Source of the DNA: Acholeplasma sp.
GTDB taxonomy: Bacteria; Bacillota_I; Bacilli_A; Acholeplasmatales; UBA5453
Assembly: GCA_036677365.1 (NCBI GenBank)
Contig: JAVBWN010000014.1
Coordinates: 127,137-191,136, forward strand
Length of the DNA stretch: 64,000 nucleotides
Direction: 5' to 3'
Shown here: positions 54,001 through 64,000 of the stretch, piece after piece
Numbering within the stretch: the stretch's first letter is position 1
Layout: every line of letters starts with the position of its first letter
Position numbers: made by a program

Positions 54001-57000
54001 CACTTGGTATCATTAAAGACAAAAGATGGGGTAGAACCTATGAAACCTTTGGTGAAAACCCTGCTGTTCCGATGAATTTGATTGGACCTTACATTGAAGG
54101 CTTACAAACCTATGGCATCGCAGCCTCTGCGAAACATTTTGTGGGTGATGGATACACCACGTATAGTACGGGTTTAGGCGGTAAATTAGACCGCGGAAAC
54201 GCGACGATTACACTCGATGATTTAGAAAATATTCATTTACCGTTATACCGAGAAGCCATTGAAGCTGGGGTTAAAACCATCATGGTTTCTTATAGCAGTT
54301 TAAATGGATTACAAATGCATGAGAATGCCCATATGATTACGGATGTTTTAAAAGGTGAATTGGGTTTTAAAGGGTTTGTTATATCGGATTATAACGGGAT
54401 TGATAACATTGCAGAAAATGGTTTTGAACAGAAAGTGGCTGCAGCCATCAATGCAGGCATCGATATGCTGATGCAACCCCATAATTTTGAAGACACCATC
54501 GCAGCGATCAAAATCGGTGTTCAAACCGGTGATATCCCAATGGCACGCATCGATGACGCGGTATCGCGTATATTAACCGTAAAATATGAATTAGGTTTAT
54601 TTGAAACTAAAGAACGACTTGCAGCGGATTTAAGAAACGCCGAGAGTTTAGCAGTCGCGAGACAAGCGGTGAGAGAATCCTTAGTACTATTAAAGAACGA
54701 ACAAAATGTATTGCCATTATCCAAAGATATGAATCTATTGGTGGTAGGTCAAGGGTCAAACAATATTGGTATCCAATCTGGTGGTTGGACCATGACATGG
54801 CAAGGCAGTGACAATTTAAACATCGCTGGCACATCCATCTTAAAAGCATTCAGAGAAGCGACTTCAGGTTCCATTTATACGAACATGGCCGATGTCAATA
54901 AAGTGGATGCCATTATATTGGTATTATCGGAAAAACCACACGCAGAAATGATGGGCGATTCTGTGGGGTTATCCTTGATTGATGATACGGGGTATGCTCA
55001 AAACTTAAACTGGATCAACCAAGTGAGAAATGCAGGCAAACCGGTCATTACCATCATGCTTTCATCAAAACCGTTGTTAGTGACGGATTACATCGATGAC
55101 TTCGATGCCTTTGTCATGGCATTCCTGCCAGGGACAGAAGGGGCAGGCATCACCGATGTCCTTTATGGCGATTATGACTTTGTTGGTAAACTGCCTTATA
55201 CCTATCCAATGTATGTATCTCAAGCTGCACATACGATGCTCGATCCCGATTATGACCCAGAGGATTACTTGTTCCCATATGGGTATGGATTGAACTATCC
55301 AAACTAACTAAAATATAATGATTATAAAGAGTCCGAAAAATCGGACTTTTTTGTTGTTTTCATGCCTGTTTTTTGGCTTGATTACGATGTAACCGTTATC
55401 ATTAATATTAAATGTAAAACTTCTAATTTAGTGTCTATTATTTATAATAACTTATGATAAAATGAGGGTGTAATCAACGATACATTACAGGAGAAAAATG
55501 AATATGAAAGACCATCTTTGTCAGGAAAAGCTCAATCTTTTTTATGCTAGAATGGCGGAAAACAAGCAAAAGCCAGGACCGCTCATGCCAACACTACATG
55601 ACGCGCAATCGATTTTTGGTTACATTCCTTTAACCATTCAAAAGATCATTTCGGAAGAACTTGGCGAAAGCATCGCTAAGATCAATGGTGTTGTCACATT
55701 TTATGGCAACTTTTCTGTTACACCCAAAGGCGAACATACCGTTTCTGTATGCTTAGGTACTGCTTGTTATGTCAGGGGTTCTAAGAACATCATGGAAACC
55801 TTAGAAAACGAACTTAAAATCAAAGAAAAAGAAACGACCCCGGATGGACAAGTGACCCTTGTTGCGACACGTTGTATTGGCGCGTGTGGTTTAGCACCGG
55901 TTTTTTCTGTTGACGGTGCAATCCACGGCAACGCCAACGTGTCTAAAGTCAAAGACATCATCAAAGAACTTAAGGAAACCCACCATGAAGCTTAATGAAC
56001 TCATGGCTTTGATGGATGCGAAAAGTTATACACCGACTTTGATGAAAGATAAAGACATCCATTTTGCTTTTTGTTCCGATTTGATGAGCGATGCTTTGGT
56101 CATCATGAATTCGGTGAAAGACCCAAAAATCTTAGAACACACCATCCTCATCACGGGTTTAGCGACCCAACAATCGATTCGAACGGCAGAAATGCTCGAT
56201 GTCGATGTGGTTTTATTGGTCAGAGGTAAAATCCCTTCTGAAAAAGTCATTTTACTGGCACACGAAGCGCAGGTCATGTTGTTATCGACAGAAACCACCA
56301 TGTTTAACGCGAGTGGCATTTTGTTTGAAAAAGGCATCCGCGGTGTCAAATACAATATCCAATGGTAAAAGAACACCAAATCATCGCTGGCAACTTTGAC
56401 TTGGCTGGTAGAGCGTCATCTGACCTCAAGCGCTTGTTAAAGCATAGTGCCGCATACCCTCGATTATTCATCAACCGTGTCTGTTCTGCTTCCTATGAAG
56501 CCGAAATCAATGTGGTCATCCATTCGGTGGGTGGCTATATGACTTATGAAGTCGAATCCGATACGATTGAACTCAACTTTTATGACGATGGCCCTGGGAT
56601 TCCAGACATCGAACTCGCGATGAAAAAAGGGTATTCCACAGCGACACAAATCGCACACTTGAATGGCTTTGGTGCTGGGATGGGTTTGAATAACATGAAA
56701 GAACTCTCCGACAGACTGACGATTCATTCAAGTCCACGTGGTACCCATTTACAAATGAACTTTAAAGTTGGTGAACGCGATGTCTAAATTATCCGCACTA
56801 CTTGAAAATACACACTATGAAGTTTTAAACCCAAGTCAGGATGACCTTTATTTTGAAGGGGTCTACGCGACAGACCTGTTATCGACAGCCATCAAGCACA
56901 TGAAACCTGATATGGCATTGATCACGATGATTTCAACCAACTCGACATTGAATCTGGCGATGATGGTGGATTTCAATCTAATCATTTTAACCAAAGACGC

Positions 57001-63000: not shown

Positions 63001-64000
63001 TTGACTTTTTAGTCACAGCGGATGCGAAAGCATCGCTCATCACCTTTTATCAACTGATTTATGATTTTAACCCAAACTTTATTGGACAAATACCAAACAA
63101 CGATTTTTACAGGTAAACTATGAAACATTGGATGAAATTGTCGTCAATTCTATCGATTTTCCTGCTATGGTATCTCATTTATTTGTGGGTCGACCACCCA
63201 CTCTTGATGCCTTCCATAAAAGATACCTTTTTGGCTTTATTTAGGCTGTTCGGCAGCAGGGATGCCGTGCTTGCAATGATGCACACTTTCGTGCGACTTG
63301 GCATCAGCATCGGCATCTCCCTTGCCTTAGCAATGATTTTAGCCTTTTTAAGTTATCGATTTAGACACGTTGAAACATTCATCCACCCTTATATGGTCCT
63401 TTTAAAAACCATCCCATTGGTATCGGTCATTCTCATTTTGTTCGTCCTGGTTCATTTCAGTTTAACAACTTATATCATCACCTTTTTAATGATTTATCCG
63501 ATTTTATATCAAGCGATTTTAACCGGCTTAAAATCTATAGACCAGAGTTATATCGATGTTTACAAATTAGAACAGGGTACACTTTTAAAAAGTATTGAGT
63601 ATTTGTATTTTCCAATGACGAGACCTTTCATTCTATTAGGGTTCTTACAATCCTTAGGGTTAGGACTCAAAGTCATTGTCATGGCTGAATTCATCACACA
63701 AGCTCAAAATGGGATTGGTAGAATCATTTATAATGCCAGAGTGAACCTGAGTTATGATCAAATTTTCGCCATTACCATCGTATTGGTCTTGATGACGTTT
63801 CTCATAGAAACGCTCGTTAAAAGACTCAATCAAGACATTGAACATGCATAAAAGCACAGTTAAAAGCTGTGTTTTTTTATTTACTAGGAGTTTTTTATAT
63901 CCATCTAAATCATTTTTAATCGAGAAAGCTTTCTTAAAGAACTCTCCCGATTCATTTAAAATCACGATGTCATGTTTAGTTGAGGCGACATCAATTCCTA

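Follow-up and report, generated by a model that had tools for sequence, protein, structure and literature searches.

A NitT/TauT-type importer that may supply the [2Fe] subcluster to an Acholeplasma [FeFe]-hydrogenase encoded without HydE, HydF and HydG

Introduction

How [FeFe]-hydrogenases mature where HydEFG is missing has been raised as a question in work on archaea and certain eukaryotes (PMC11216029). Among the archaeal hydrogenase carriers, 5 of 130 were reported to have maturases, and an alternative pathway was proposed (Greening et al., PMC11216029); the word "scaveng" is absent from the main text of that paper. Active enzyme in the absence of maturases is reported in the same source for Giardia and Entamoeba, which hints at a route other than scavenging. 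Greening et al. (2024, PMC11216029) also describe hyd6TM as uncharacterised; it is a small membrane gene found beside archaeal group A hydrogenases in mostly maturase-less organisms. Hydrogenases of RF39 and RFN20 have been reported, and the accessible part of that report does not comment on their maturation (PMC7301438). A cultured Izemoplasma has hydEFG (PMC8397711).

A synthetic [2Fe] compound enters living cells of E. coli and Synechocystis, in which HydA was matured without HydEFG, and transporters have been suggested for this uptake (PMC6243476; PMC7460606). Semisynthetic maturation with [Fe2(adt)(CO)4(CN)2]2- illustrates that an external [2Fe] unit suffices, as is proposed here for a natural system, but the procedure is artificial, uses a high dose and has no known dedicated transporter (PMC6243476).

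Salvage proteins of the PqqT/ThiY/Thi5 fold follow the same logic as the one proposed here, in that a cofactor is imported and not made; the difference lies in the proposed cargo, which would be a catalytic Fe-CO/CN subcluster. Cobalamin is salvaged through BtuF or through ECF S components. In the literature searched, which covers subscription journals thinly, we found neither a proposal of H-cluster uptake nor a transporter for an Fe-CO/CN subcluster.

Results

The hydrogenase operon

We analysed a 64,000-nucleotide stretch of Acholeplasma sp. DNA (the window). Its hydrogenase operon consists of eleven same-strand ORFs, from 55498 or 55504 to 63851, and is bounded by two terminator-like hairpins:

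55326..55351, + strand, terminator-like hairpin that closes the upstream glycosidase-like gene
55498..55995 (start at 55498 or 55504), + strand, hydC, HndA-like [2Fe-2S] thioredoxin-fold subunit (PF01257, E 6e-45)
55985..56368, + strand, DRTGG-like accessory protein (PF07085, 16.7 bits, below the cut-off)
56362..56787, + strand, GHKL/anti-sigma-like ATPase (PF02518)
56780..57115, + strand, second DRTGG-like protein (PF07085, 22.3 bits, below the cut-off)
57112..57789, + strand, PHP-domain protein (PF02811)
57782..58306, + strand, second GHKL ATPase, kinase-like (PF02518)
58290..58661, + strand, hydD, HndB-like [2Fe-2S] ferredoxin (PF01257)
58665..60476, + strand, hydB, FMN/NADH-binding NuoF-like subunit (PF01512, PF10589)
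60473..62233, + strand, hydA, catalytic subunit with intact H-cluster motifs (NF040763 above the cut-off)
62217..63116, + strand, substrate-binding lipoprotein of the NitT/TauT (SsuA/Thi5/PqqT) fold, PDB 3HN0 family by fold and sequence comparison; proposed [2Fe] cofactor receptor
63120..63851, + strand, ABC permease of the NitT/TauT type (PF00528), the cognate ATPase gene being absent from the genome
63850..63876, + strand, terminator-like hairpin at the operon end, directly 3' of the permease gene

Genes of a regulatory type are nested inside the operon. Near-identical pieces of RNA-run contigs from four studies cover it, and one 728-nt contig of the run X6 spans hydA and the binding-protein gene (62057-62784). 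We set these contigs aside as evidence for co-transcription. DNA carry-over is possible, as the survey had cautioned for RNA-library contigs, and the contigs of a second run, X7, extend over upstream genes.

The survey's finding of an intact NADH-linked group A [FeFe]-hydrogenase was confirmed. HydA, which is encoded by a single gene copy in this genome, scores 781.3 bits against NF040763 (cut-off 765, E 4.8e-235). It has the three H-cluster motifs, with QVAPA, TSCSPGW, MPCIAKKAE and EFMGCTGGCINGGGQ all kept, and its partners HydB and HydC are present. The best solved relative is the electron-bifurcating HydABC(D) of Acetobacterium woodii (PDB 7Q4V, E 2e-171), which has the TSCSPGW motif and the HydA/B/C subunit set in common with the window enzyme. 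The idea that TSCSPGW is a sign of a decayed enzyme was rejected because 7Q4V carries the same motif. The window operon differs from the A. woodii system in its five accessory genes and terminal importer, and the genome lacks hydEFG.

Absence of the maturases

The genome is 99.86% complete in 37 contigs. Profile searches in it detected no HydG and no HydE, and for HydF only generic GTPases, none of them scoring above 88 bits (cut-off 326). Profiles built from the HydE, HydF and HydG sequences of four order-level genomes likewise retrieved no HydE or HydG and generic GTPases only. The hydE, hydF and hydG members of the maturation system are thus all absent from this genome, as the survey had reported. 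The survey also described maturase lack as the rule in Acholeplasmatales; among 151 genomes of the order (at least 85% complete), HydG was found in 4, compared with a hydrogenase match in 98.

The absence extends to other genomes that carry the importer. In a HydF search that covered 80 chosen genomes, HydF was absent from 54 of the 56 importer-positive HydG-less genomes (31/31 in Bacilli, 23/25 in Clostridia), and none of ten such genomes tested had HydE above the cut-off. The three maturases are lost together, so that the entire pathway is lacking.

Co-occurrence of the importer with hydrogenase

In the order sample, 90 of the 98 hydrogenase matches exceed the group A cut-off, and the binding protein occurs in 92 genomes, all of which have a hydrogenase match. 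The survey's pattern is reproduced by these counts, but not its exact digits, which came from another sample and profile. Among the hydrogenase carriers, the binding protein is present in 90 of 94 HydG-less genomes versus two of the four HydG-positive ones. Four order genomes have a hydrogenase match but neither HydG nor the importer, and three of these are also negative for the S-component-like gene described below.

A wider sample comprised 300 scored genomes, all kin at the class level, of which 127 have a hydrogenase; the 100 of these outside the order were all tested for HydG, and the binding protein was counted at E 1e-20 or better. In these other Bacilli, it was found in 80 of 83 HydG-less hydrogenase carriers versus 4 of 17 HydG-positive carriers. 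The direction is the same within three families (2/2 vs 2/8, 3/5 vs 0/2 and 29/29 vs 1/2). The binding protein occurs without hydrogenase in 3 of 173 genomes (G010, G308 and G391, the last minus 16 kb), in none of them with an adjacent permease. Some hydrogenase carriers, too, have no permease next to the binding protein (six loci, for example), and an argument from decay is therefore weakened.

The third sample was drawn from the class of the Blautia hansenii genome (179 genomes, with the centre and one unscored genome dropped). The binding protein was present in 26 of 64 HydG-less and 21 of 115 HydG-positive Clostridia. When hydA was searched for in the HydG-less genomes, the importer was found in 25 of the 46 with group A hydA and in none of the 12 with no hydrogenase match. 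Weak profile matches (E 1e-8 to 1e-24) were treated as other NitT/TauT paralogues and left uncounted; those sampled lie mostly distant from hyd genes, except in two genomes. One split match (G424) was counted and one match at 3e-24 (G523) was not, and two genomes (G209 and G509) were unscored in some searches.

Fisher p values for the alternation with HydG were 1.6e-10, 0.018 and 0.0015, which overstate the significance, the samples consisting of non-independent kin and mostly of draft genomes. The association of the importer family with maturase-less hydrogenases is nonetheless genuine and goes far beyond what chance would give. The survey had tied the family to hydrogenase carriers without HydG, and this link held in all three samples; to call the family almost confined to maturase-less carriers would be too strong for Clostridia, given the 21 HydG-positive genomes that have it. 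Outside the order, the importer occurs in 25 HydG-positive genomes, of which 4 are Bacilli and 21 Clostridia. A separate paralogue in such genomes was rejected: they are intermixed with the others on the tree, which has 13 changes, at least nine of them forced.

Gene position, TM1266 and an S-component-like gene

In the order, 34 of 92 carriers have the importer at most 1.6 kb from hydA and 37 of 92 have it within 7 kb, counts that are a floor on draft contigs; in 55 of 92 it is located away from hydA. Adjacency to hydA, which the survey had put at 26 of 30 loci, was thus seen, but its rate is lower over all carriers. In other Bacilli, the importer is within 3 kb of hydA in at least 9 of 84 cases and within 11 kb in at least 19 of 84, in seven families; it adjoins hydA of both the multimeric and the monomeric type, in at least six other families of Bacilli. 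Among the named loci of the Clostridia type, it is within 7 kb of hydA in 9 of 80. No enzyme gene was found to recur beside the importer across lineages. The recurrent neighbours, namely SpoU, CobW pairs, thrS, ligA and phosphopentomutase, were rejected as functional partners and reflect lineage synteny.

TM1266 corresponds to TIGR03959, "iron-only hydrogenase system putative regulator" (110 bits against 60.8). In all four HydG-positive order genomes it heads hydE-hydG-hydF. The same gene is located upstream of the binding protein in 7 of the 80 named loci and in one further genome. It is present in 10 of the 25 HydG-less importer-positive Clostridia; in eight of these, which are all of those lacking HydF as well (8/8), it directly precedes the binding protein, and the other two have retained HydF. 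In three genomes that combine the two systems, TM1266 occurs twice, once next to hydG and once in front of the importer; in two genomes the gene order is hydC-hydB-hydA-TM1266-SBP-permease-ATPase. TM1266 is absent from the window's own genome. In 52 related loci anchored on hydA, the genes behind hydA are the importer in seven and TM1266-hydE-hydG-hydF in two, and never both.

Twenty-one Clostridia with group A hydA lack both HydG and the importer; three of them have HydF. In 12 of the other 18 we found a gene for an ECF S-component-like protein of 158-190 aa, of which four members exceed the PF12822 cut-off. In eight of these 12 genomes it directly follows hydA or TM1266, with the orders hydA-TM1266-S (three genomes), hydA-S (three) and TM1266-S (two), and in four it lies elsewhere. 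The remaining six encode a group A hydrogenase, and we found none of HydG, HydF, the importer and the S component in them. Of the three Bacilli exceptions, two have an S-component-like gene beside hyd genes and one has hydF-hydE. The controls were tiny (1/5 HydG-positive and 0/5 importer-positive genomes), and the profile was built from the cases themselves. The alternating gene positions thus reveal three cassettes, for synthesis, ABC import and S-component import, that share one position. By description only, hyd6TM resembles the Clostridia S-component-like gene in size and position; the window differs in having an ABC binding protein and a permease.

The binding protein and the permease

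The binding protein has 299 aa and the lipobox LFGC24 (Cys24). Its gene most likely starts at 62217 and overlaps the last 17 nt of hydA, in line with the overlap noted in the survey. It has no Pfam or NCBIfam match. The predicted model has a pLDDT of 92.4, reproducing the previous value of 92, and its fold is most similar to 3HN0 (Z 29.3), followed by 3UN6, PqqT, MqnD, SsuA and NrtA. A lipoprotein-anchored binding protein of the SsuA/NrtA/Thi5 fold, as expected of a NitT/TauT importer, is therefore present. The only solved sequence homologue is 3HN0 (E 2.3e-42 over profile positions 26-305, i.e. full length). This protein, BDI_1369 of Parabacteroides distasonis, is labelled "nitrate transport protein" in its entry, and the title names no ligand or function. 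PqqT, which binds a cofactor, belongs to the same fold class as the window protein (Z 24.6) but has 12% identity. The Clostridia form is a member of the window protein's family (hhalign probability 99.9, E 1e-35).

Two identities were rejected. For SsuA, the aliphatic sulfonate-binding protein (TIGR01728), the window-type protein gave no match and a Clostridia-type member scored 61.8 against 163.5. For the SAO system (SaoP/SaoX), the permease scored 67.7 against 295 and a Clostridia-type binding protein 22.4 against 300. The best-kept residues in 220 sequences are G36, D72, P77, N79, G100, G124, P172 and C-terminal P/F/Y. Besides the start and the lipobox, no column is occupied by Cys, His, Met or Arg in 70% or more of these sequences; therefore, the conserved residues appear to point to backbone contacts and not to a bare-metal site.

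The permease matches BPD_transp_1 (PF00528; 58.8 bits against 26.4), as is typical of the NitT/TauT type. The operon has no ATPase gene, as already observed in the survey, and we found none of the cognate clade elsewhere in the genome: 29 cognate ATPases form one branch of a quick tree (SH-aLRT 99), and none of the 30 best-scoring ATPases of this genome falls inside it. In kin, full three-gene transporters are found; where present, the ATPase gene follows that of the permease, and its motifs are normal.

Discussion

The survey had proposed that the importer stands in for HydEFG, and this idea gains support from the three samples, from the position of TM1266 and from the S-component-like genes in the same position. 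It is very probable that the importer takes the place of HydEFG in supplying the H-cluster, with either a finished subcluster or a simpler piece as cargo. Judging from the sequences, the cargo itself is probably the [2Fe] subcluster in a nearly finished form, and its import would replace synthesis by HydE, HydF and HydG. The [4Fe-4S] half of apo-HydA would be built by housekeeping Fe-S assembly. The lipoprotein would capture a diiron unit with carbonyl, cyanide and azadithiolate ligands that neighbours with maturases release, and the permease would bring it into the cell. The driving force would come from an ATPase borrowed from another system or from irreversible insertion into apo-HydA, which would proceed without a helper. 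Genomes with both systems would scavenge and so spare synthesis. The parts are known families and the logic is that of cofactor salvage, but an Fe-CO/CN cargo would be new.

All of the co-occurrence and position evidence would fit equally well if the importer carried a simpler piece, such as the azadithiolate bridge, a precursor of that bridge or a mononuclear Fe(CO)x(CN) unit, that is finished by a HydEFG-independent route. Small solutes are usual for NitT/TauT binding proteins, a different route has been put forward for archaea that lack maturases (PMC11216029), and the genome has an H-protein-like gene (C6:18588, a motif match only). We nevertheless consider this unlikely. No enzyme gene accompanies the importer repeatedly across lineages; the genome has only five proteins with the CxxxCxxC motif, none of them like HydE or HydG. 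HydF, which has a role in building the bridge ligand, was lost too, which is why we favour a cargo that is finished or close to it.

It is improbable that the importer takes up a generic anaerobe nutrient (iron, a sulfur compound, or a thiamine or vitamin precursor) while the alternation with HydG stems from parallel loss of biosynthesis in reduced genomes and the adjacency from co-regulation under anoxia. The fold is common to SsuA, TauA, NrtA and ThiY/Thi5, Crp/Fnr genes adjoin the importer in several lineages, and HydG-positive Clostridia carry it as well. However, small anaerobic kin without hydrogenase almost always lack it, as do most small HydG-positive genomes, and both TM1266 and the replacement by an S component are specific to H-cluster supply. 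The paucity of conserved Cys, His, Met and Arg columns also disfavours a bare-metal or sulfonate site.

A function other than transport in this lineage, with the ATPase-less pair as a sensor or relic and the hydrogenase lacking [2Fe] (electron-transfer or sensory) or inactive, would agree with the missing cognate ATPase, the nested regulatory-type genes and the permease coupling helix, whose consensus is LLEMA.VF in 98 loci with and LlDv.kL in 54 loci without an ATPase (about ten of the latter probably misassigned), but it is very improbable because all [2Fe]-pocket motifs are retained in most of the 92 hydA sequences, the pair is intact in 41 of 42 order loci, and in kin the transporter is complete with three genes, the ATPase motifs being intact.

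Import of the [2Fe] subcluster allows a wider, tentative reading, in which the finished [2Fe] centre might be a shared good of anoxic communities, imported by lineages without HydEFG through the ABC family or an S component. It could perhaps cover Acholeplasmatales, several other wall-less or gut Bacilli and about a quarter of the sampled Clostridia, with both importers often under TM1266, a generalisation that we rate at a little below an even chance. As a further step, put forward with the same reserve, H2 metabolism in these organisms might depend on producers and be off in pure culture, and in most Acholeplasmatales an ATPase-free uptake might be pulled by apo-HydA.

If import of [2Fe] is correct, gut, rumen and digester communities rely on cofactor cross-feeding for their H2 production, and hydA counts give too high an estimate of activity in pure culture. 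A natural importer of [2Fe] could in that case make semisynthetic hydrogenase work in whole cells more effective. The candidate is a soluble, foldable protein, and its binding to the existing synthetic compound is directly measurable. With respect to pure cultures, a hydrogenase gene of Olsenella umbonata was reported to be transcribed with no detectable H2 (PMC12578642), and Blautia luti was reported to make H2 (PMC12773636).

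Variant forms and gene neighbourhoods of the importer

The binding protein that, together with an ABC permease, closes the hydrogenase operon is found in several other arrangements among the sampled genomes. At four loci of a single clade (L300, L302, L307 and L308), no permease adjoins the binding protein, and the gene 3′ of it encodes an Mrp/NBP35-type Fe-S carrier ATPase; hydC lies a few genes away at three of these loci. At eight loci (L137, L150, L156, L157, L163, L164, L206 and L077), the importer is preceded by a Crp/Fnr gene, from which a trio of genes encoding a HypB-like GTPase, an ABC ATPase and a binding protein diverges. 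A pair of CobW-type GTPase genes is located close to the importer in one order-level family (L049, L051, L053, L054, L057, L064, L077, L080 and L082), and no such gene was found in the genome of the window. The 611-aa protein P0053 carries the binding domain twice, in tandem.

In the Clostridia genome G561, a divergent binding protein (E-value of 4e-18 against the family profile) is preceded by TM1266 and is not accompanied by a permease (L456, G561:C2:122237-123470). No TM1266 was seen in the hydEGF operon of this genome.

Genomes without the importer

An ECF S-component-like gene is located 3′ of hydA or TM1266 at ten loci (L436, L439, L441, L442, L448, L451, L453, L454, L476 and L478), whose genomes possess neither the maturases nor the ABC importer. 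In the closed genome G380, in which HydG, TM1266 and the importer were all not found, hydA is followed by a NifH-like gene, two nitrogenase-component-like genes and, directly thereafter, hydF-hydE (L450, G380:C1:1404000-1423999).

Other features of the window

A five-gene DRTGG/GHKL/PHP cassette lies within the hydrogenase operon (55985-58306), and a sensory hydrogenase is absent. The same cassette carries an additional inserted ORF of ~400 aa at the G347, G346 and G201 loci. Contigs from the RNA runs X6 and X15 share an end point at 55493, just 5′ of the operon's first gene; this is a weak hint at most. A cluster for fatty-acid synthesis occupies 46000-51895; we take its ORFs to be fabD, fabG, fabF, and fabZ-like, biotin ligase-like and BioY-like genes.
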